Positions 2,971 to 57,987 of a stretch of 64,000 nucleotides of DNA are shown piece after piece (the first letter of the stretch is position 1; the number at the start of each line of letters is the position of its first letter). The notes beneath the pieces were generated by a model. That model made no database searches. It had not been told where the DNA came from and worked only from the letters and a program-made list of their open reading frames with translations. Made by a program: the position numbers and the translations under genes. The DNA is from an uncultured Clostridia bacterium (GTDB lineage Bacteria > Bacillota > Clostridia > TANB77 > CAG-508), in NCBI GenBank assembly GCA_944386675.1, contig CALXBY010000003.1, positions 17,689 to 81,688 of the forward strand, in the 5' to 3' direction.

Positions 2971-3846
2971 TTATATATCTATGTCCTTATATGTTGTTAC
3001 TATCTTAGCTCCCTGCTTTATTAAATCATTTGTTCCTACTGAATTTATCTCATCAATATTTCCTGGTACTACATATACATCTCTTCCTTGTTCTAATGCA
3101 AAATCCACAGTAATTAAAGTTCCACTTTTCTTTTTGGCTTCAATGACTATAATTCCTTTACTCATTCCACTAATAATTCTATTTCTAGCTGGAAAATTCA
3201 TCTTAGCAGGCTCTACTCCTAATGGATATTCAGATAAAATTGCCCCATTTTCTCCTATTATTTTATCATACAAATATTGATTTTCTTTAGGATATACAAT
3301 ATCTAATCCACTTCCAATAACCCCCACTGTTATTCCTTTGGCTTTTATTGTACCTATATGTGACCAACTATCAATTCCTTTTGCTAATCCACTAATGATA
3401 TTAATATCTTTTTTAGCTAAATTATATGAAAAATATTGTGCCATTTTTATTCCATATTGGCTTGCATCTCTACAACCAACAATCCCTATTGACTGATTAT
3501 TTAATATTTTTAGGTTTCCTTTTATATACAAAGATATGGGATAATCATATATATTTTTTAAAATTTGCGGATATTCTACATCTTCAACTGTTATTATATT
3601 CACATTTTGTTTTTTCATTTTTTCTATATATTTATCTATTTTTTCTCTTTCTTCTTTATTTAATATATTATCTGCTATTATCCCATTAAATCCTTTTATT
3701 TTTATAATTTCCTCTTTTTTTAGATTATATATTTTCTCTGGCGTTTTATATATTTCCAATAATTTTTGTTTTCTTTTACTTCCTAATCCTTTTACTAAAG
3801 ATAGCCAAATCCAATATTTTTTGTTCTTCAAATTTTCTATATTCAT
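2971..3846 (-). CDS. dprA: DNA processing protein DprA/Smf
   Basis: 291 aa; IVGCRDASQYG...GLAKGIDSWSH...GVIGSGLDIVYP...FPARNRIISG Rossmann-like DprA motifs. Confidence 0.85.
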   Translation of the reverse strand: MNIENLKNKKYWIWLSLVKGLGSKRKQKLLEIYKTPEKIYNLKKEEIIKIKGFNGIIADNILNKEEREKIDKYIEKMKKQNVNIITVEDVEYPQILKNIYDYPISLYIKGNLKILNNQSIGIVGCRDASQYGIKMAQYFSYNLAKKDINIISGLAKGIDSWSHIGTIKAKGITVGVIGSGLDIVYPKENQYLYDKIIGENGAILSEYPLGVEPAKMNFPARNRIISGMSKGIIVIEAKKKSGTLITVDFALEQGRDVYVVPGNIDEINSVGTNDLIKQGAKIVTTYKDIDI

Positions 3847-3854
3847 TCCTCCTA

Positions 3855-3890
3855 AAAACCCAAAAAGACACTTTTAAAAGTGCCCCTTTA
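3855..3890 (-). terminator. putative rho-independent terminator after folD
   Basis: minus-strand GGCACTTTTAAAAGTGTC hairpin followed by TTTTTGGGTTTTT. Confidence 0.4.
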
Positions 3891-3894
3891 TTTT

Positions 3895-4743
3895 TTATTT
3901 ATTTTGATTTATTGTTGCTTTTATAACATTATTCATAAGCATTGCTACTGTCATTGGTCCCACTCCCCCTGGAACTGGCGTAATATAGCTTGCTTTTTCC
4001 TTTACATTTTCAAAATCTACATCTCCTGTTATTTTTTTATCTGTGCCTCTATTAATTCCAACATCTATAACAACTGCTCCTTCTTTTACCATATCAGCTG
4101 TTACAAAATTTGGTTTCCCAATAGCAGCTACTAATATATCTGCATTTCTTGTTTTTTCCTTTAAATCTTTCGTTCTTGAATGACAGATTGTTACAGTTGC
4201 ATGCTTATTTAAGCAGCATGCCATAAGTGGTTTTCCTACAATGTTACTTCTTCCTATAATTACTAAGTTTTTTCCTTCTAAATCTATATTATACTCTTCA
4301 AACATTTTCATAATGCCATATGGTGTACAAGATATAAATGTATCTTGATTTAATAATAACTTTCCTACATTTACTGGATTAAATCCGTCAACATCTTTTT
4401 CATATGAAATTTCTCTAAAAGCTTCATCTATATCTAAATGTTTTGGAATAGGACTTTGTAATAAAATTCCATTTACAGTTTTATCTTCATTTAAGGTATG
4501 TATTAATTCAATTAATTCTTTTTGCGTAATATTTTCATTTAATATATGTTCTTCATATTTTACACCAATTTCATCACATGCTTTACTTTTATTTCTAACA
4601 TATACCTTTGATGCTGGATCATCTCCTACCATGATGACAGCAAATTTAGGTATGATTCCTTTTGCCTTTAAATTTTCACATTCTATTTTTAAATTTTCTC
4701 TTACGTTTTTTGCTAATGTTTTTCCATCTATTATTACAGCCAT
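3895..4743 (-). CDS. folD: bifunctional methylenetetrahydrofolate dehydrogenase/cyclohydrolase FolD
   Basis: MAVIIDGK...VGDDPASKVYVRNK...IIGRSNIVGKP...TPVPGGVGPMT; start taken at internal Met 8 of the track ORF. Confidence 0.9.
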   Translation of the reverse strand: MAVIIDGKTLAKNVRENLKIECENLKAKGIIPKFAVIMVGDDPASKVYVRNKSKACDEIGVKYEEHILNENITQKELIELIHTLNEDKTVNGILLQSPIPKHLDIDEAFREISYEKDVDGFNPVNVGKLLLNQDTFISCTPYGIMKMFEEYNIDLEGKNLVIIGRSNIVGKPLMACCLNKHATVTICHSRTKDLKEKTRNADILVAAIGKPNFVTADMVKEGAVVIDVGINRGTDKKITGDVDFENVKEKASYITPVPGGVGPMTVAMLMNNVIKATINQNK

Positions 4744-5069
4744 TTTTTCTATTTTACAGAGCATATATTTACACTCTATATCTCCTTTCTTTTTTTCTTA
4801 ACTGATTATATACTAACACATTTCTTTTTGCAAGAACAAATCTTGTATCTTCAAAAATTCTTTTCTAAATTTTAAATCACATACTTTATTTTAATTTTTG
4901 AAAGTGGTATAAGAACTTATCCATATAAAAAGCTATCCTGTTTTTATTTATTTTAACAGAATAGCCTTTGAAAAAAAGGGGATGTTTATGATTATTAATA
5001 TACTATCTGTATATGGATTATTCTTGCATGAAATGTGAATTATATGTGAATTCCCCTTTGTTTTATTTT

Positions 5070-15423: not shown

Positions 15424-15469
15424 TAGGGACGTGCCAAAATAGACATTTTTTGTCCCAAAGGGACACACC
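15424..15469. repeat. degenerate solo copy of family-1 arm (TA + GGGACGTGCCAAAAT...GTCCCAAAGGGACACACC), 5 bp after spoIVA stop
   Basis: first 17 nt and last 13 nt match the family-1 arm ends; internally deleted. Confidence 0.6.
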
Positions 15470-35466: not shown

Positions 35467-35676
35467 AAAATCGTGATTTTTCTAAAGACATACTATATAT
35501 TTTATGAAATTACGAATGTGAATGAAATTATATTAGAAATTATTAAGATAGCTAATAGGAGAATCTCAAACTTGCTTTGAGAGGTGCCTATTAGCTATCT
35601 TTAAAATTTCTTTATGATGTAATGTTAACCGAGTAATAAATAAAATATATAGTATGTCTTTAGAAAAATCACGATT
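35467..35676. mobile_element. MITE-like element with 32-bp perfect terminal inverted repeats (AATCGTGATTTTTCTAAAGACATACTATATAT) and an internal ~48-bp hairpin; right arm overlaps the spoIID stop codon
   Basis: 35467-35500 versus reverse complement of 35645-35676; internal ~150 bp homologous (inverted) to 56904-57139 inside family-1 copy B, including the CTAATAGGAGAATCTCAAA...TTTGAGAGGTGCCTATTAG hairpin. Confidence 0.7.
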
Positions 35677-36682
35677 ACAGAGAATTAACTTCCTTAATCT
35701 CTACTCCAACATAAAAATGTTGAATAATATCTTCTGCTGTACTTCCACTTTTTGCCATACTATCTGCTCCTGTTTGACTCATACCAACACCATGACCATA
35801 TCCTTTTACCGTAAATTTTATTTTTCCTTCATTTTTTGATATATCAAAATTTGTAGCTCGTAATCCAAATATATTTCTAGCTTCTGTTCCCGAAATTTCA
35901 TGATTTCCGAATTTTATTGTTTTTACTCTTCCACTACTTGTATATTCTAATATTTTAATATCATCATCATTATTAAAATCGATTTGAATATCTGTGTATT
36001 TTGCTTTTAATTTTTCTAAAAGTTCTTCATTTGTTAACTCTACTTCTGAATTGTATTGAGAATATGCATCTTCTCCTGATGTTTCTACTACCTGGAGATA
36101 TGGCATATTGCTTCCCCCTCCCCAAACATCTACTGGTAATTCCGTTTTTCCACCACTATTAGAATGAAAAAATGCATTAATTGGTTGATTATTATATGTT
36201 ATTATTTTTCCTTTTGTTTCATTTACACATTCTTCTATTTTGCTCCATTTTGCTTCTTTATCTCCATCCCATCTTGCTAATCTATCCTCTTTTGAAATCC
36301 ATGCTTGACAGCATGTAGAATCATCACAAACATCCGCATTTTCATGTTTTTTATTGTTAACTTTATAAATTGTATATGTTCTTGCGACAATTGCTTGTGC
36401 TTTTAATGCTTCCTTTTCGAAATCTACTGGCATTTCTGCTGATACCACATTGCAAAGATAGTTATCTAAAGCTACTTCCTCTACTGTATTTGTATCTGTA
36501 TGTAATAATTTTATGGTTCCATATTGATTATATATATATTCACTTTCTGAATGTTCTTCTTTAATTTCCACTATTCCATCATCTGTCTCTGAAGATGTTT
36601 GCATATTACTTTTTGTTAATAATGCTGGTAAAAAAAAGCAAATAAACAAAAAGGCAAAAAAATAGATAAAAACTTTTCGCAA
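35675..36682 (-). CDS. spoIID: stage II sporulation protein D (SpoIID, lytic transglycosylase-like)
   Basis: 335 aa; signal peptide, SpoIID/LytB domain (AQAIVARTYT...). Confidence 0.8.
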   Translation of the reverse strand: MRKVFIYFFAFLFICFFLPALLTKSNMQTSSETDDGIVEIKEEHSESEYIYNQYGTIKLLHTDTNTVEEVALDNYLCNVVSAEMPVDFEKEALKAQAIVARTYTIYKVNNKKHENADVCDDSTCCQAWISKEDRLARWDGDKEAKWSKIEECVNETKGKIITYNNQPINAFFHSNSGGKTELPVDVWGGGSNMPYLQVVETSGEDAYSQYNSEVELTNEELLEKLKAKYTDIQIDFNNDDDIKILEYTSSGRVKTIKFGNHEISGTEARNIFGLRATNFDISKNEGKIKFTVKGYGHGVGMSQTGADSMAKSGSTAEDIIQHFYVGVEIKEVNSL

Positions 36683-38314: not shown

Positions 38315-38428
38315 TATAGCCTCCTTTAAAATTCTTCTTGTATTATATTTCTTTTTCCAATATTTTCCAAGAGTAAAAAATAAGAAGTTTTGTCGTTTTA
38401 TAAGAAGTTTTCGACAAATGAAACAATT

Positions 38429-38491
38429 GGGACGTGTCAAATCATTTCAAAACGAAACAAAAAGGACAGGCATCCTGCCTGTCCCTTTTGG
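38429..38491. repeat. family-1 element remnant: one diverged arm (GGGACGTGTCAAATCATTTCAAAACGAAACAAAAAGGACAGG) plus the first 16 nt of the opposite arm
   Basis: alignment to the 45-bp family-1 arm; lies between GH13 stop (38520) and spoIIAA start. Confidence 0.7.
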
Positions 38492-38519
38492 ATTAAAAAG
38501 TACAAAAGATATTTTGAAT

Positions 38520-40412
38520 TTATTTTTTATCTTTTCTTAAAATGAGTGTTCCATATTCTCCTACTTTATCTTTTGTACTATTTTCGGTAAATACAACTTC
38601 ATAATTCCTAAAATTGTCATTAAAAATAACTTTGTCGGTTCTATTGGAATATAAAACTATATTTCCTTTCTCTGAATACATTTCTAATAGCATGCATCCT
38701 TCATCAATCTCTCTCAGCCTTGGTTCGCCATCACCTAAAATATCTATATTACTCTTTCGATAATGGTTTAATTTTGTTACATAAGTTTGCATATCCAGCT
38801 TAGGATTCTCCCAATCCATATCTTTTCGGCAAAATGGATCTTTATATCCCATGACACAATTCTCCGTTCCCTGAAGCATACTGGGATTTCCTGGCAAAGT
38901 ATAAAAGATTGGTAATGCATTCTTTTCATTCCTTCTTGCCACAATTCTCTGCTCTTCCGGTAATTGATCATGACTTGCCGAATAACTTCTAAAGCCAAAT
39001 ATCTCAAACTCAGCGTCTATATGCCTCCAAGGACCTTCAATATCATCCAGTTTTTTATATGGGTCTGGATTCATGAGTTCTCCAACCAAAGATGTCATCA
39101 AGGTCACCGTATCATGCGTAGATATAACATTCATCAGAATATCTGACACAGATTTTGGATATTCTCTATAAACTTTTTCAAAGTTATATCGAAAATGCTC
39201 ATGCAATCCCCATCTCACCCAACGGATAATCGCATCTCTTATTGGATAATTCATCAATGAATTTGCCTGTCCATCAAAGATTTGTGGATTTTCTCGCTCG
39301 GTTGCAATGTCCCACATCTCATTAATGAAAATAATCTGTGGATAATCCTTTTGAATATCTTTTACAATTGCCAAAAGAAATTCTTTGGGTAATATATCTC
39401 CCAAGTCCATTCTAAAGGCATCTACTCCTACACTGATATATTTCTTTAGGATTTTAATGCATTCCTTTTGCACTTCTGGATTTTGTTTATTGAGTTCTGG
39501 CATATTGGTATAACCATACCATGTAACTGGTTTTCCATCTTTGAAAATGTAAAATTTTCTATAAGGAGAATTTACATCAGATATTGCTGATTTAAAATAT
39601 TCATGTTCATCTGATGTATGGTTAAATGCCATATCGCATATAACCTTTATTCCCAGTTTCTTTGCTTCTATGCAAAGTTCCTCCAAATCTTTCCAAGTCC
39701 CCAGCATAGGATCTATCTGCCAGAAATCTTCTGCCTCATAATGATGATAATTTCTACTTTTACAGATTGGATTCATATATATTGCATTAAATCCAAGTGC
39801 TTTTATATATGGCAATTTTTCTTTTATGCCTTGTAAATTACCACCATAAAAATATTCGTTCCGATAGATTCCATCAGAATCTGGTTTCCAGTCTGGCATT
39901 CTATCATTCCAATCTTTGTTTTTTCTTCCTTCAACTGGAATAATCCCATTACTACCAATTGCAAACCTATCTGGTATGATTTGATAAATCATCCGTCCTT
40001 TCCATTCTGGATATTCTTTCAAAGTCGCATCTTTTACTTCAAGTTTCCAGCAGTACTCATTTGGATATGCTTTTGTGTTTTTCTGTGTTGTCAAAAATTC
40101 TTCATTTTGATATACATAGTACAGTTGTCCCTCTATAAAGAGAGTAAAGTAGAACCAGTATATCCCTGATTTACCAAGTGAAAATTCAGCCAAATAAACA
40201 CTTCTGGTTATACCTGTTTCTCTTTCCTCTTTTCCTTCGTACGGTATGCTCACTTTTTTCACTATCCTATCAAATTGATAGAACATTATCTGAAGTTTTT
40301 CTACAAATCCTTTATCCAGGATTTTTACTTGAACTTTTACCTTGTTTTTGGTTGTACATTTTTCTGGCTTTATAAGCCGGAATTCAAAATACTCTTCTCT
40401 CCTTTTTAACAT
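38520..40412 (-). CDS. GH13 alpha-amylase-family glycosidase (neopullulanase/cyclomaltodextrinase-like, intracellular)
   Basis: 630 aa; GH13 regions II-IV GFRMDLGD, EMWD, SHDT; no signal peptide. Confidence 0.85.
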   Translation of the reverse strand: MLKRREEYFEFRLIKPEKCTTKNKVKVQVKILDKGFVEKLQIMFYQFDRIVKKVSIPYEGKEERETGITRSVYLAEFSLGKSGIYWFYFTLFIEGQLYYVYQNEEFLTTQKNTKAYPNEYCWKLEVKDATLKEYPEWKGRMIYQIIPDRFAIGSNGIIPVEGRKNKDWNDRMPDWKPDSDGIYRNEYFYGGNLQGIKEKLPYIKALGFNAIYMNPICKSRNYHHYEAEDFWQIDPMLGTWKDLEELCIEAKKLGIKVICDMAFNHTSDEHEYFKSAISDVNSPYRKFYIFKDGKPVTWYGYTNMPELNKQNPEVQKECIKILKKYISVGVDAFRMDLGDILPKEFLLAIVKDIQKDYPQIIFINEMWDIATERENPQIFDGQANSLMNYPIRDAIIRWVRWGLHEHFRYNFEKVYREYPKSVSDILMNVISTHDTVTLMTSLVGELMNPDPYKKLDDIEGPWRHIDAEFEIFGFRSYSASHDQLPEEQRIVARRNEKNALPIFYTLPGNPSMLQGTENCVMGYKDPFCRKDMDWENPKLDMQTYVTKLNHYRKSNIDILGDGEPRLREIDEGCMLLEMYSEKGNIVLYSNRTDKVIFNDNFRNYEVVFTENSTKDKVGEYGTLILRKDKK

Positions 40413-40634
40413 TTTTTCTCCATCCTTTCTATTTATAATACATGAATTTTTATCTATCGTAAAAAGCCATTTGGCTTATAAGTTCACTTTACTATTTTCC
40501 TTTCCATTTGTCAATGTCATTTTCTGTAAATCCTTGCTATTTCTTTATACTTTTTTAATAAATTTGTAAATAAAAATCTTAGCTTTATATAAAAAATAAA
40601 CCTTAGATACAATAATTATAGAAATTGTATCTAA

Positions 40635-40681
40635 GGTCTGTCCCTTTTGGTATCATTTTGAAACGATTTGGCACGTCCCTA
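40635..40681. repeat. family-1 solo right arm (45 bp, 43/45 identical to consensus) + TA, ending 4 bp before the ytfJ stop codon
   Basis: GGTCTGTCCCTTTTGGTATCATTTTGAAACGATTTGGCACGTCCC TA. Confidence 0.8.
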
Positions 40682-51210: not shown

Positions 51211-52092
51211 TTATGCTCTTGGATGTGCTTTTCTATAAATATCTCTTAATCCTTCATCTTGGAATTGCATATATACTTGTGTTGATGATATATCTGAATG
51301 TCCAAGCATTGTTTGAATTGCTTTTAAATCTGCACCATTTTGTAATAAATGTGTTGCAAACGAATGTCTTAATACATGTGGTGTTATATCTTTCGTTATA
51401 TGTGCTTGTTCTTTATAATATTTTATAATTTTCCAGAAACCTTGTCTTGTTAGTCTTCCACCATTTATATTAACAAATAGGGCTTTTTCATCCTCATTTT
51501 TGATTAAGATTCCCCTTGCTTCTTCTATATATTCTTTTAATGCCTTTAATGACATTGTACCTAATGGTATAATCCTTTGTTTGTTTCCATTTTTACAAAT
51601 AACGTAGGCTTCTTCTAAATTAACATCATCTATATCTAATGAAATAATTTCTGTAACTCTCATTCCTGTAGCATATGCAAACTCTAGCATTGCCTTATCT
51701 CTTATTCCTTTTAAATCAACATCATCTGGTTGTTTTAATAATAATTCTACTTCTTTTGCTGTTAATACACTTGGTGTTCTCTTTTCTATTTTTGGAGATT
51801 GGATATTTGCTGTTGGATCAGCTTTTATCTTTTTATTTTTTAATATAAATTGATAAAATGATCTAATAGATGCTATACATCTAGAAATACTTGAGGCTTT
51901 TTTTCCATTTTCTTGCAATTGGTTAATGTAATCTTGAATATCTTCTTCTTTCACTCTATTGTAATGAATACCATTTTCCTCTAGATATTTTCTAAATTGT
52001 TTTAAATCTCTTTTGTATGATTGTAATGTATTTTCTGATAATTTCTTATCATTTTCTAAAAAGTTAAAAAAGAATTTTAATTGTCTCTCCAT
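51211..52092 (-). CDS. xerD: tyrosine site-specific recombinase XerD
   Basis: 293 aa; C-terminal HVLRHSFATHLL...LGHSDISSTQVY with catalytic Tyr; adjacent to spoIIM as in Bacillus. Confidence 0.75.
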   Translation of the reverse strand: MERQLKFFFNFLENDKKLSENTLQSYKRDLKQFRKYLEENGIHYNRVKEEDIQDYINQLQENGKKASSISRCIASIRSFYQFILKNKKIKADPTANIQSPKIEKRTPSVLTAKEVELLLKQPDDVDLKGIRDKAMLEFAYATGMRVTEIISLDIDDVNLEEAYVICKNGNKQRIIPLGTMSLKALKEYIEEARGILIKNEDEKALFVNINGGRLTRQGFWKIIKYYKEQAHITKDITPHVLRHSFATHLLQNGADLKAIQTMLGHSDISSTQVYMQFQDEGLRDIYRKAHPRA

Positions 52093-54150: not shown

Positions 54151-54172
54151 TTTTTGTTCCTCTTTTCTAAAA

Positions 54173-54203
54173 GTTGCCAAAAGGGACGGGCCATTTTGGC
54201 AAC
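54173..54203. repeat. family-2 palindromic repeat (inverted orientation) in the 5' leader of the EndoQ-like gene
   Basis: GTTGCCAAAAGGGACGGGCCATTTTGGCAAC. Confidence 0.8.
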
Positions 54204-54242
54204 TTTCTTTCTATAATTAACTAATAATTTTTCCTAAAAAAA

Positions 54243-54283
54243 ATTGCCATTTTAGCCCGTCCCCTTTGGCAACTTTTGGCAAC
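54243..54283. repeat. family-2 palindromic repeat with duplicated 3' half (TTTTGGCAAC x2), terminator-like for the 54289 gene
   Basis: TTGCCATTTTAGCCCGTCCCCTTTGGCAACTTTTGGCAAC followed by T7. Confidence 0.8.
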
Positions 54284-54288
54284 TTTTT

Positions 54289-55092
54289 TTAATTGTTTTC
54301 CTTTTTTAATTTCTCACCTTGTATATTCTCTTCTGCTATATGTGCTAATATTTTTCTTGTTGTTTCTTCACTAAATAATGGCCTATTAGAATCTTTAAAC
54401 ATTTCTTTTTTTATTTCATTTCTGTATTTTTGAACAGCTTTATCTACTTTAGATTCATATTCATAACATACTTTTTTTATGAATTCTTTTATATTTTCTG
54501 ATTCATTATGTATTTTTACTAAACGTCTTAAAGATTTCATTGATGTTAAATCACTTAGTTCTACTTGTTCCATCATTTGAACAAATTCTCCAAATGTGTG
54601 TAAAAATCGATTATACTGTCCTTTCAAATTTCTGTGTTCTAATAATACCATAGCTTCATCTGGCTGAAATCCTATTCTTTCTGGTCTATCTAATAGCATT
54701 CCTCCAAATTGGTCTACTAACTCTAAGACGTCACTTTCTCTTTCTCTTGGATTGCTATTACTATATCTGTTAATTTCTTCACACATTTTACAAAACTTAC
54801 GGTCAAATCCTAATGTTAATAAATAATCTGCTCCTTCTTTTGCATATGAATGAATTTTTTCTAAATCTTGTGCATTGTCTACTTTTTTACAATTACATAA
54901 TAGACATGCTGTTAATACTAAGTTTTTGTCTACATCTATTTTCATGTAGTCTATAAACATTCTGGCAATTTCTGTTTTGAAAATAACAGATTTGTCAAAA
55001 AATATTCTTGTCTTTTTTGCTAAATAATAGGTGATTTCCATTTTAGCTGCTAAATCTTGTTCATCTAAAATGTAATTAGCAAATGTATCCAT
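54289..55092 (-). CDS. hypothetical protein (Cys-rich helical; no confident assignment)
   Basis: ORF 276 aa, probable start at MDTFANY. Confidence 0.4.
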   Translation of the reverse strand: MDTFANYILDEQDLAAKMEITYYLAKKTRIFFDKSVIFKTEIARMFIDYMKIDVDKNLVLTACLLCNCKKVDNAQDLEKIHSYAKEGADYLLTLGFDRKFCKMCEEINRYSNSNPRERESDVLELVDQFGGMLLDRPERIGFQPDEAMVLLEHRNLKGQYNRFLHTFGEFVQMMEQVELSDLTSMKSLRRLVKIHNESENIKEFIKKVCYEYESKVDKAVQKYRNEIKKEMFKDSNRPLFSEETTRKILAHIAEENIQGEKLKKENN

Positions 55093-55259: not shown

Positions 55260-55724
55260 ATGAAACAATTAAAAATCACAACAAACAATGAAAAAGAAAC
55301 TTTAAACTTTGGAAAAAAATTAGGTAGTTTCTTAAAAAAAGGAGATACGGTTGTTCTATCTGGAGATTTAGGCTCTGGAAAGACAAAACTAACAGAAGGT
55401 ATCTTAACTTATTATGGTCTAGAAGATGAAATATCTAGTCCTACTTTTACAATTGTCAATGAATATGTAAAAGATGATATTAAACTTTTTCATTTTGATG
55501 TCTATCGATTAGAAGATTCTTCTGAATTCTATGCTATTGGAGGAGAAGAATATTTTGAAAATGGAATTTGTATTATTGAATGGGGAGAAATTATTGAAGA
55601 TGCCCTTCCAACAGAATATATACACATTCGATTTGAAAGAGATGAATCAGATGATAATTTAAGAGTTTTAAATATCATTTCTTATGGTGAAAAATATGAT
55701 GAACTATTAAATAAACTTATATAA
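55260..55724 (+). CDS. tsaE: tRNA threonylcarbamoyladenosine biosynthesis ATPase TsaE
   Basis: 154 aa; GDLGSGKTKLTEG Walker A. Confidence 0.9.
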   Translation: MKQLKITTNNEKETLNFGKKLGSFLKKGDTVVLSGDLGSGKTKLTEGILTYYGLEDEISSPTFTIVNEYVKDDIKLFHFDVYRLEDSSEFYAIGGEEYFENGICIIEWGEIIEDALPTEYIHIRFERDESDDNLRVLNIISYGEKYDELLNKLI

Positions 55725-55748
55725 ATAATTATGTATTGGAGGATCACA

Positions 55749-56885
55749 TTGAAAATATTAAGTATAGAAACTTCTAGTAAAATATGTAGTGTCGCAATAT
55801 TAGAAGATAAAAATTTAGTAAAAAAAATTGAATTAAATAATGGATTAACACATTCAGAAACATTAATGCCACTCATTAAACAAATATTAAATGAAACAAA
55901 TTTAAATTTATCTGACATGAATTTACTCGTTTGTGATATTGGACCAGGTTCTTTTACTGGTATTCGAATTGGTGTTGCAACAGTAAAAGCTTTCACTGAT
56001 AGTTTGCAAATTCCTTCTGTTGGCATTAGTTCTCTTGAAGGATTAGCTTATAATATTAAAGATGATGGTCTTATCTGTAGTATTATCGATTGTAAAAACA
56101 ACAATTGTTATTATGCTTTATATGAATTAAAAAATGATACATATACATTATTAGAAGCACCTAAAGCAGATAGCGTCCAAAATTGTTTAAATTTTTTTAA
56201 TTATAAATATGCAAATTCTAAAATCACTTTTGTTGGAGATGGCTCTATTATTTACAAAAATGTAATAGAAAATATATCTTCAAACTTTGTTTTTGCTAAT
56301 ACAAATTTTCCAGATAATGAACTTAATATGATTGATGTATATAATTTAGGAATTGCTGGAATGAATAAATATACCAAATATGGAGCAGATGAAAATCTAC
56401 TACCTCTTTACTTAAAAAAGCCTCAAGCACAAAGACAGCTAGAAGAAAAAAATATTGTTATAAAAGATATGAACATTTCTGATTTAGAAAATTTAGACAT
56501 TTCTAAATTTGATGATTTCTGGAATATCGATATTTTAAAAGATGAATTAAATAGTGAAAATTCTAAATTTGTCTGTGCCAAACTAGAAAATACAGTTATT
56601 GGTTTTGCTGGTATTAAAATTATTTTAGACGAAGCTGATATTATGAATATAGCTGTTATGAAAAATTACAGAAGACAAGGTGTTGCAACTTTACTCCTAA
56701 ATCATATCTTTAATATTTGCAAAGAAAAAAATATTGAAACCCTAAATCTTGAAGTTAATGAAGAAAATTTTTCTGCCATCTCTTTATATCAAAAATTCGG
56801 TTTTAAAGAATGTGGCAGAAGAAAAAAATATTATGATAACAAATATGATGCGATTTTAGGGACGTGCCAAATCGTTTCAAAATGA
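55749..56885 (+). CDS. TsaB (t6A biosynthesis, inactive Kae1 paralogue) fused in one frame to a RimI-type GNAT acetyltransferase; last 9 codons and stop supplied by the family-1 repeat
   Basis: TTG start with GGAGG 6 nt upstream; N-term LKILSIETSS...CDIGPGSFTGIRIG (TsaB); C-term ...AGIKIILDEADIMNIAVMKNYRRQGVATLLL... (GNAT motif A); terminal ...AIL|GTCQIVSK* read from repeat sequence. Confidence 0.75.
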   Translation: MKILSIETSSKICSVAILEDKNLVKKIELNNGLTHSETLMPLIKQILNETNLNLSDMNLLVCDIGPGSFTGIRIGVATVKAFTDSLQIPSVGISSLEGLAYNIKDDGLICSIIDCKNNNCYYALYELKNDTYTLLEAPKADSVQNCLNFFNYKYANSKITFVGDGSIIYKNVIENISSNFVFANTNFPDNELNMIDVYNLGIAGMNKYTKYGADENLLPLYLKKPQAQRQLEEKNIVIKDMNISDLENLDISKFDDFWNIDILKDELNSENSKFVCAKLENTVIGFAGIKIILDEADIMNIAVMKNYRRQGVATLLLNHIFNICKEKNIETLNLEVNEENFSAISLYQKFGFKECGRRKKYYDNKYDAILGTCQIVSK

Positions 56886-57186
56886 GACCAAAAGGGACAG
56901 ACCTATTTATATAGAAGTATAACAAAATTAAAATATTATATTTCTTAATTTATTACATTCCTCGGCTAACATTGCATCATAAAGAAAAACTAAAAGTATC
57001 TAATAGGCACCGCTCAAAATCAAGTTTTGAGATTCTCCTATTAGATACTTTAATTTTTTCTAATATGATTTCATTTGCATTCGTCATTTTATAAATTAAG
57101 AAATATAATATTTTTAATAATTTTTCTTTCTTCTAAACAGGTCTGTCCCTTTTGGTCTCATTTTGAAACGATTTGGCACGTCCCTA
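56857..57186. mobile_element. MITE-like element, family 1, full copy (~330 bp): TA + 45-bp arm ... 236-bp core with internal hairpin ... 45-bp arm + TA
   Basis: arms 56859-56903 and 57140-57184 are reverse complements (one G/A difference from copy A); TA at 56857-58 and 57185-86; right end forms the TAG stop of the S4-domain gene. Confidence 0.85.
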
Positions 57187-57987
57187 AACGTATTTTTCAA
57201 TTAATACAACTGTTCTTCCACTTCTTGTTGTTCCTGTGAATTCTTTTATAATAAATCTGCCTTTTCCTCTAATTGTAATGACATCTCCTAATTTTACTGT
57301 TTTTGAATTTTTGGTTTCATTTTGTCCGTTTATAAATACTCTTTCTTGTGCAATAATTTCTGATGCTTTACTTCTAGAGGTTCTTGCTAAATCTGATACG
57401 ATGTTATCTAATCTTAGTGATGGTACTATGATTGTTACTTCTTCTATTTTTAGTTCTAATTTTCTAACATTTTGTATTTCTTCTATTTCGATTTTAGCAT
57501 TTTCAAATCTTGTAAGAGATGGTAATTGTGTTTTTAATACATCTGCAAATTCATTTAATGTTATAATGTCTGCCCCATCTTCTCCTACGATAATATCTCC
57601 TACTTTTTCTCTTTTTAATCCTAATTTCACAATTCCACCTAAATAGTTTCTATGTGAATATTTTCCTTTTTCTTCTTCTGGTAATATGATTCTTACTACT
57701 TTTAAAATTTTGTCATAGTTTTTTTCTAACATTTTATCATCAAATTTTTCAGGATATAGTATACATATTTTTCTTTCTGCATCTTCATATCCACCATATA
57801 GTTTATAATTTTTATATTGTAGTTTTCTTAAAAAATTTTCTACTAATGATACTTGATACATATCTAAAAAATCTGTATGCTCTATCTTTTCTCTTTTTGA
57901 TGATATTTCTATTTTATCTAATACTTGTGATAAGCATAATTTATCATCTTGTTTTTTATAGTCTTTTAATAAGTCTTGTTTATTCAT
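57184..57987 (-). CDS. YlmH-like S4-domain RNA-binding protein
   Basis: 267 aa; TDFLDMYQ N-terminal motif, C-terminal S4 fold (RLDNIVSDLARTSRSKASEII); 4-nt ATGA overlap with dxs. Confidence 0.6.
   Translation of the reverse strand: MNKQDLLKDYKKQDDKLCLSQVLDKIEISSKREKIEHTDFLDMYQVSLVENFLRKLQYKNYKLYGGYEDAERKICILYPEKFDDKMLEKNYDKILKVVRIILPEEEKGKYSHRNYLGGIVKLGLKREKVGDIIVGEDGADIITLNEFADVLKTQLPSLTRFENAKIEIEEIQNVRKLELKIEEVTIIVPSLRLDNIVSDLARTSRSKASEIIAQERVFINGQNETKNSKTVKLGDVITIRGKGRFIIKEFTGTTRSGRTVVLIEKYV

Follow-up and report, generated by a model that had tools for sequence, protein, structure and literature searches.

The convergent ends of tsaB-rimI and ylmH

The window analysed here, a stretch of 64,000 nucleotides (64 kb) from an assembly of an uncultured Clostridia bacterium (contig CALXBY010000003.1, positions 17,689 to 81,688), contains two convergent genes, a tsaB-rimI fusion and a ylmH-like gene, whose intervening gap is filled entirely by a palindromic element of about 330 bp (56856–57187) that supplies the stop codons of both. 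The element consists of two identical, outward-facing 46-nt copies of a dispersed repeat ('arms'), each headed by the trinucleotide T-T-R, around a nested palindrome of 234 bp. Its parts and the genes concerned are the following (REP, repetitive extragenic palindrome; TIR, terminal inverted repeat; RAYT, REP-associated tyrosine transposase).

55260–55724, + strand: tsaE (Pfam TsaE PF02367, E 3e-41)
55749–56885, + strand: tsaB-rimI fusion open reading frame (ORF), with its final nine codons and the stop inside the repeat
56856–56858, + strand: conserved repeat head TTA (T-T-R in the logo of 38 unique flanks), here the Leu codon of 'DAIL'
56859–56904, + strand: left 46-nt arm (type A REP/TIR), encoding GTCQIVSK and the TGA stop (56883–56885); the same arm brackets RAYT genes in loci L004 and L032 of related genomes
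56905–57138, no strand assigned: interior of 234 bp, a nested palindrome, inverted in other same-species assemblies
57139–57184, − strand: right 46-nt arm, a perfect reverse complement of the left arm
57184–57186, − strand: TAG stop of the ylmH-like gene, in which the arm's final base joins the TA of the head (CTA on the + strand)
57184–57987, − strand: ylmH-like S4-domain gene, 267 amino acids (Pfam YlmH_RBD and S4)

The complete palindrome spans 56855–57188, with outer halves at 56855–56922 and 57121–57188, and the left arm reads GGGACGTGCCAAATCGTTTCAAAATGAGACCAAAAGGGACAGACCT. Further inside lie a perfect 24-nt middle inverted repeat (56930–56953 and 57091–57114) and a central hairpin (56983–57019 and 57025–57061). 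Folded as RNA, the whole element forms one hairpin with a predicted free energy of -158 kcal/mol (z = -23 against shuffled sequences), and both stop codons lie within or at the foot of its 50-bp perfect stem. A pattern scan of 56600–57400 for intrinsic terminators (a GC-rich stem-loop followed by a U-tract) returned no site, the + strand beyond the hairpin offering only TATTTTTC, 6 nt after it, and an Rfam search of 56500–57500 at E <= 1 gave only sub-threshold snoRNA and miRNA noise.

Two gene ends supplied by one repeat

The tsaB-rimI gene ends AAA TAT GAT GCG ATT TTA GGG ACG TGC CAA ATC GTT TCA AAA TGA, the codons from TTA onwards reading L-GTCQIVSK-stop. An earlier reading of the locus, made from the sequence alone, had proposed that GTCQIVSK and the TGA are translated from the left arm, in frame with the gene, and that the right arm plus TA forms the TAG of the S4-domain gene; both statements hold, the latter through the CTA at 57184–57186, where the last arm C is followed by TA. 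Its proposal that the native RimI C-terminus has been replaced is likewise borne out by comparison with relatives, which keep an end of the form ...YDAILM plus 2–6 residues (MKK, MGR, MER, MKL, MNR and others). Among 120 homologues, the ...YDAIL-GTCQIVSK end is restricted to the window and its 98–99% identical relatives. The predicted C-terminal tryptic peptide of the repeat-tailed protein is YDAILGTCQIVSK.

The alignment to the solved structure of E. coli RimI (5isv) continues through DAIL, which matches DAII, up to chain residue 141 of 165; the core of the GNAT acetyltransferase domain is thus intact, the replacement being limited to the tail and the end of the final strand. RimI would have lost just its last few native residues, which in relatives are -LM and at least two more. 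The Leu of DAIL is encoded by CTT in all seven DAILM orthologues that were read as DNA and by TTA in the window and in loci L002/L003, L058 and L061–L063; since TTA is the conserved repeat head, this Leu is most likely repeat-encoded as well, and the native sequence would then end ...GAT GCG ATT.

Could the tail be artificial, the product of a fold-back chimera, a frameshift error or another fault of assembly or sequencing? Artefacts of this kind do occur at these palindromes: just beyond its right arm, the contig of L059 closes (2255–2284) by repeating the 3' end of its rimI in reverse complement, most likely because the assembly folded back on itself. However, four independent same-species assemblies from different samples agree on both junctions and on the 378-residue product, and both flanks continue as normal genes. 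We therefore regard an artefact as extremely unlikely.

A dispersed repeat that closes two reading frames

The arm occurs five times in the window at no more than 3 mismatches, with 0.00 copies expected from shuffled sequences. Its exact 27-mer was found at 47 further loci in about 18 metagenome-assembled genomes (MAGs) labelled uncultured Clostridia, Eubacteriales or Bacillota, and a metagenome scan for additional arms yielded 2 loci only. In 38 unique flanks, the bases preceding GGGACG are T (31) or A (7) at position -3, T (35) at -2, and A (21) or G (16) at -1, so that the conserved head of the arm is T-T-R followed by GGGACGTG; the flanking dinucleotide is TA in 19/38 and TG in 15/38.

All arm heads face a gene end no more than 36 nt away. 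We counted the non-orthologous ORFs of at least 140 codons that read into an arm head (n = 24), and they are distributed as follows.

Stop formed by the TAG of the head (offset -2), 8/24: PheT, an AMP-binding enzyme, a TraG/VirD4 protein, a GH18 protein, ylmH
GTCQIVSK and then a stop (offset +24), 6/24: IleS, a heavy-metal P-type ATPase, a histidine kinase, TsaE, an unknown protein, TsaB-RimI
Third, open frame (offset +47), 1/24: an orthologous P-type ATPase of another species
Stop 5–13 nt upstream of the arm, 8/24: among them prmC and the ytfJ-like gene of the window
Stop 36 nt upstream of the arm, 1/24: an ORF in L037

The arm head carries a TAG (TTA plus the first G) and a TGA 24 nt into the arm, and hence stops in two of the three frames, so an ORF whose end touches an arm or slips into it is terminated at once or after eight extra residues. 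The open frame is used in 1/15 cases, below the one-third expected (binomial p of about 0.02, from a small sample), and this shortage fits selection against long repeat-encoded extensions. Donation of a stop or a tail is a routine habit of this repeat family and one already known for such repeats: flanking ORFs often take their TAG stop from a REP terminus, and a REP located between convergent genes is less than 20 bp away from either ORF (Di Nocera et al. 2013, PMC3733652).

Two further observations concern these tails. Orthologous heavy-metal P-type ATPases enter the same arm in different frames, the protein ending in GTCQIVSK in one species and in DVPNRFKMTPKGTDL in others (L030 and L027/L033). 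In L009, a 268-residue ORF (3507–4313, − strand) ends ...LGTGQNVSK, resembling a diverged GTCQIVSK tail; the two arms at that locus flank an intervening host ORF of 176 residues and do not form one element.

The arms bracket a RAYT-type transposase gene in related species

In L004, full inverted arms at 3911–3958 (+ strand) and 5129–5082 (− strand) bracket a gene for a protein of 251 residues (4164–4916), and in L032 arms at 3141–3185 (+ strand) and 4507–4433 (− strand) surround a gene at 3517–4275; L014 and L048 carry orthologous copies of this arm-bracketed gene. Its product is a transposase recognized by Pfam Y1_Tnp (33 bits, cut-off 23) and by NCBIfam REP_Tyr_transpos (E 2e-15, 56.9 bits), and 26 homologues all retain the HUH (NHxHxL) and Y..NPV motifs unchanged. 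While a phmmer search of the RAYT sequence against the PDB gave no match, the best Foldseek match of its AlphaFold2 model (mean pLDDT 79) is the REP-associated tyrosine transposase of E. coli (4er8_A, E 4.6e-6, TM 0.72), which ranks ahead of the transposases of IS608 and ISDra2. The C-terminus appears to contain a helix-turn-helix (HTH) domain, matched by PF08279 and weakly by PF13412. A C-terminal HTH characterizes TnpA-REP subclass 2.1, which corresponds to RAYT group 1 (Quentin et al. 2018, PMC6006769), and RAYT group 1 has been reported also in Clostridia (Bertels et al. 2017, PMC5581495).

In all four MAGs the transposase gene sits between ileS and the same ABC ATPase gene, with 66% identity between the transposases and 84–92% between the products of the neighbours. 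Residence at a single syntenic locus matches the pattern of vertically inherited RAYTs (PMC5581495). The element in the window is best read as a doublet of these arms without a transposase. We also considered that its interior might be what a deletion left of a RAYT gene and rejected this, as the interior has no extended similarity to RAYT-flanking DNA (a single 30-nt match, in L014 only) and instead matches another repeat of the window (35498–35655).

These data bear on the explanation that the three canonical copies in the window had initially suggested, namely that the element is a classical miniature inverted-repeat transposable element (MITE) of the IS630/Tc1-mariner-like type, mobilized by a DDE transposase and recently inserted, with duplication of a TA, into an intact rimI end. 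TA does stand directly outside the arms in all three of these copies, and the terminal inverted repeats are long and perfect. Across the family, though, TA accounts for 19 of the 38 unique flanks and TG for 15, the conserved motif being T-T-R; the sole coding partner with these ends is a Y1/HUH and not a DDE transposase; most arms are solitary; and the relatives read show neither an empty site nor the tail DAILNVFFN deduced for the gene before insertion, which is absent from the 120 homologues. We dropped the explanation once the flank logo and the Y1 partner were known, and consider it very unlikely.

Orthologous gaps and slippage of the junctions

In search of an empty site, the orthologous rimI-ylmH loci L001–L003 and L051–L063 were read. 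None of them has a repeat-free gap; every readable gap contains a palindrome, across lineages whose proteins are 76–85% identical. The palindromes differ. The gap of L001 holds a 44-bp mini-hairpin with the same termini, the first G of which completes the TAG of rimI, that of L053 has type-B arms after MGR-TAG, that of L056 has an unrelated palindrome made from both gene ends, and the contigs of L051 and L052 break within a different repeat. A clean empty site (...GATGCGATT TTA AACGTA...) was not met in any relative read, nor was the precise-excision tail DAILNVFFN seen among the 120 homologues. In this respect the sequence-only reading, according to which a repeat insertion truncates the gene, goes too far: no relative read has the site empty, and the loss amounts to a few residues.

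The junction of the window (GCGATT|TTAGGGACG) equals that of L001 (GCAATT CTTATGAATCG TTAGGGACG) minus 11 nt, and on the ylmH side 9 nt of L001 are missing from the window. From this comparison we infer that a small (11-nt) deletion in an already occupied locus is to be preferred over insertion into an intact gene as the origin of the window junction. A direct example of such junction slippage is provided by two database proteins that are 99% identical, P0041 and P0019: a 9-nt deletion, GGACGTTAG, between direct GGACGT repeats (L053 3620–3640 versus L055 1855–1870) removes the TAG and extends the protein from 377 to 395 residues, 18 codons into the arm. Recent recombination behind the junction common to the window and L002 was considered and discarded, sliding identity being roughly uniform (60–91 per 100 columns) with no near-identical block.

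The interior repeat is also present at the orthologous site in L002 (the lineage of protein P0029) and in L059 (the lineage of P0006); in L059 the arms around it are of a second type (GGGACGTGCCAAAATGGAC...). The composite has thus been resident across lineages with TsaB-RimI just 76–82% identical, its arms and junctions having changed in the meantime.

An alternative is that the arms and hairpin are mainly a host-selected, non-mobile 3'-end module, i.e. a two-way terminator, an mRNA stabilizer or a protein-binding site, the RAYT being incidental or domesticated. In its favour, arm copies stand at orthologous positions in several species, for example in L020/L028/L039/L045 and in L009/L015/L022, the rimI-ylmH gap is occupied throughout the 76–85% identical lineages, each arm head is within 36 nt of a gene end, the hairpin is extremely stable, and RAYTs have been reported as domesticated and vertically inherited (PMC5581495). 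On the other hand, near-identical stretches of 46 nt at many unrelated loci in about 18 species are hard to maintain without copying or conversion, the scan revealed no terminator-like U-tract, and constraint does not hold everywhere, the L002 arm (38/46) having diverged roughly at the neutral pace of the adjoining DNA. As the sole explanation we find a 3'-end module unlikely; it is compatible with, and not exclusive of, an origin of the arms as mobile repeats.

The interior: a second repeat family found in both orientations

The interior is 81% identical over 166 nt to a palindromic repeat elsewhere in the window (35498–35655). This second copy of the interior family as a whole occupies the following interval.

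35470–35675, no strand assigned: another member of the interior repeat family, bounded by perfect 30-nt inverted repeats of its own at 35470–35499 and 35646–35675

Its right end abuts the TAA stop (35675–35677) of a gene at 35675–36682 on the − strand.

Four complete same-species assemblies have identical arms (46/46) and flanks and differ in the orientation of the interior, which runs one way in the window and in L063 (ERZ28613881) and is the reverse complement (233/234) in L058 (positions 1899–2132; ERZ24773554) and L062 (ERZ24773403). The contig of a further locus, L061 (ERZ17292905), stops precisely at the boundary between the left arm and the interior. The difference in orientation may reflect either real flipping between perfect inverted repeats or an arbitrary choice by the assembler.

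A regulated invertible switch (inverton), with the arm-flanked 234-bp segment altering the expression of the flanking genes, would account for the opposite orientation in 2/4 of the complete assemblies with otherwise identical arms and flanks, and a mixed population would give a break such as that of L061; promoter-like hexamers are also found within the interior. However, these hits scarcely exceed the number in shuffled sequences (8 versus 4.6 expected), and a TATAAT box is present in both copies of the 24-nt middle repeat, each facing outwards. The interior is about 70–80% palindromic (163/237 aligned columns match its own reverse complement, and the internal arms are 78–81% complementary), so that flipping alters little. 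The only recombinase among the ORFs scanned at about 48–64 kb is a tyrosine recombinase of 293 residues (51211–52092, − strand; Phage_integrase and N-terminal SAM-like domains) adjoining spoIIM, which we take to be a housekeeping XerD and not an invertase. Assembler ambiguity over a perfect 46-nt inverted repeat could mimic inversion, and RecA recombination between the arms would suffice to produce it. Given the largely palindromic interior and the XerD-like nature of the sole recombinase, regulated inversion is unlikely, and we place it below a host-selected 3'-end module in plausibility.

Comparison with known repeat-transposase systems

The closest parallels are the TIRtrons and TIRYTs described by Di Nocera et al. 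2013 (PMC3733652), which are equivalent to TnpA-REP subclass 2.1 and RAYT group 1. Like these, the family discussed here has a RAYT-related Y1/HUH transposase with a probable C-terminal HTH and long terminal inverted repeats in place of short REP hairpins, its repeats are dispersed also as singles, dimers and groups, and the transposase gene occupies one syntenic locus. It differs in the arm head, TTR-GGGACGTG, which (as GGGGACGT) agrees with the published TIR motif GGGGWSAS at 7/8 positions only if R = G, and in its hosts, which are uncultured gut Clostridia with a RAYT scoring under the NCBIfam cut-off. The arm density (five canonical copies and variants in 64 kb) also seems higher than the abundance of flanking 16-mers reported for RAYT group 1, 12 per replicon.

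With the REPs of Proteobacteria (E. coli, Pseudomonas), their RAYTs and their hairpin-forming doublets (REPINs) the family has in common inverted doublets that form hairpins, termini that supply TAG stops, a position downstream of genes and no more than 20 nt from both convergent ORFs, and a transposase fold that best matches 4er8. In contrast to them, the arms are 46 nt long, are not themselves short GC-rich hairpins and are mostly solitary; there is no unpaired GTAG (or CGTC) tag, although TTAG and GACG are present otherwise; and the doublet described here carries a nested second repeat of 234 bp. Rickettsia palindromic elements (RPEs) and intragenic REPs likewise contribute codons to conserved housekeeping proteins, which in our case are tRNA-modification enzymes, an aminoacyl-tRNA synthetase and others. 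Unlike in those systems, only the extreme C-terminus (8–20 residues) is repeat-encoded here, with no in-frame internal insertion, a restriction explained by the quick closure of two frames by the arm. The invertons of gut bacteria resemble the element in being segments bounded by perfect inverted repeats and found in both orientations across natural populations; they differ from it in that no dedicated invertase is seen among the ORFs scanned, the segment is near-palindromic and lacks a clear promoter, and its inversion may be passive recombination.

Origin and possible consequences of the element

We interpret the element as a palindromic, non-autonomous REP/REPIN-type repeat, more precisely a TIR doublet of a RAYT-group-1 or 'TIRYT' unit that encloses a nested repeat and supplies two gene ends, and assign this interpretation a probability of roughly 75%. 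The arms would have been spread, now or formerly, by the RAYT via single-stranded DNA, as proposed for REPINs. An 11-nt junction deletion in the repeat-occupied locus would have produced the present rimI junction. The ylmH gene uses the TAG of the head, and rimI, which enters in the other frame, ends with L-GTCQIVSK-stop instead of the native L-M-x-x. Once transcribed, the hairpin probably serves as a two-way 3'-end structure that stabilizes or terminates transcripts. The position of both stops inside the stem may damp or slow the termination of translation, a possibility suggested by the precedent of E. coli, where ribosomes can stall at REPs lying no more than 15 nt from a stop, according to the work cited as reference 17 in PMC12306157.

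Several observations weigh against this interpretation. Only 8 convergent pairs of arms were found and 47/63 arms are unpaired rather than doublets, although MAG fragmentation and diverged partners may hide some doublets. That several species have copies at orthologous sites is as compatible with long residence as with mobility, which is itself inferred, no pair of a filled and an empty site having been observed. The REP_Tyr_transpos score of 56.9 is under the curated NCBIfam cut-off of 80, no RAYT gene is present within the 64-kb window, and the link to a transposase comes from related species, the genome of the window lying outside the loci retrieved. The pattern scan found no canonical intrinsic terminator. 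Finally, protein P0029 shares the window junction yet branches outside the window plus P0004 in a neighbour-joining tree, which means that the scenario of an 11-nt deletion needs parallel events, recombination or an unreliable tree.

On the preferred interpretation, the element is a known explanation encountered in a new host, a RAYT-type REP/TIR repeat overlapping two gene ends, and the nested second repeat and the inversion polymorphism are small new points for REP-like elements outside Proteobacteria. It indicates that transposase-linked palindromic repeats shape gene ends in poorly known gut Clostridia. The closure of two frames makes the sliding of a gene end into the repeat nearly harmless, with a common eight-residue tail on unrelated proteins as the outcome. 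For the annotation of MAGs, C-terminal differences between orthologues, contig breaks and fold-back contigs at these sites should be read as effects of the repeat and not as protein biology.

A bolder extension, which we consider unlikely, would see the RAYT/TIRYT arms as host-integrated gene-end modules. Dozens of genes, including those for the essential IleS, PheT, TsaE, TsaB-RimI and YlmH, would depend on repeat stops and share a tail peptide, and the interior would be an active flip-flop, inverted through recombination or by the RAYT, which adjusts the 3'-end structure of the convergent genes or their antisense transcription.

The TsaB-RimI fusion

The sequence-only reading had recognized a single ORF encoding TsaB followed in frame by RimI, and the domain models agree. 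Pfam places a TsaD-family domain (PF00814) at residues 40–234 and a GNAT domain (PF00583) at 252–358, and both NCBIfam equivalog models score above their cut-offs within the one ORF (TIGR03725 TsaB, 144 bits, cut-off 69; TIGR01575 RimI, 112 bits, cut-off 86). It had added that tsaB and rimI are normally two genes, whereas 120/120 of the best database homologues (63–99% identity, 342–395 residues) are the same two-domain fusion; the fusion is, on this distribution, a clade-wide and ancestral trait of these uncultured Clostridia, unrelated to the repeat. An alignment with related Clostridia, which it had suggested for deciding whether the fusion and the C-terminal replacement are shared, gives different answers for the two: the fusion is common to all 120, and the GTCQIVSK end occurs only in the window and its 98–99% relatives.

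The ORF, listed as 55731–56885 and in frame up to the TGA at 56883–56885, yields 384 residues from ATG 55731 or 378 from TTG 55749. The TTG is likelier to be the start, as a GGAGGA motif precedes it, and gene callers give 378 residues for the near-identical database proteins P0001–P0003; the product of 384 residues expected earlier is obtained only from the ATG. Existing knowledge of the function of TsaB or RimI is unchanged by these results.

Other palindromic repeats

Other members of the arm family in the window are listed below.

583–701, no strand assigned: short doublet in which a spacer of 27 nt separates the same two arms, situated 2 nt past the stop of prmC (704–706)
40634–40679, − strand: solo arm that begins 6 nt past the stop of the ytfJ-like gene, with a small hairpin and a T-run behind it
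15424–15469, + strand: variant (type B-like) solo arm, 5 nt after an in-frame TAG

The doublet at 583–701 occupies nearly the entire gap from the prmC stop to the apparent ribosome-binding site and start of the next gene (about 565–577, − strand), which runs off the start of the window. Another doublet of the same arms is found in L011 (1194–1524), around a different nested palindrome of 240 nt, and an ORF of 186 codons upstream of it stops at the TAG of the head. A diverged arm (GGGACGTGTCAAATCATTTCAAAACGAAAC...) at 38424–38492, downstream of a 630-residue ORF that ends at 38520, runs directly into a short hairpin, GGACAGGCA-TCC-TGCCTGTCC. A different palindromic repeat (GTTGCCAAAAGGGACGGGCC...GCCCGTCCCCTTTGGCAAC, with TTTTGGCAAC repeats) lies at 54170–54290 between two − strand ORFs of 405 and 276 residues and has the motif CCAAAAGGGAC in common with the arms.

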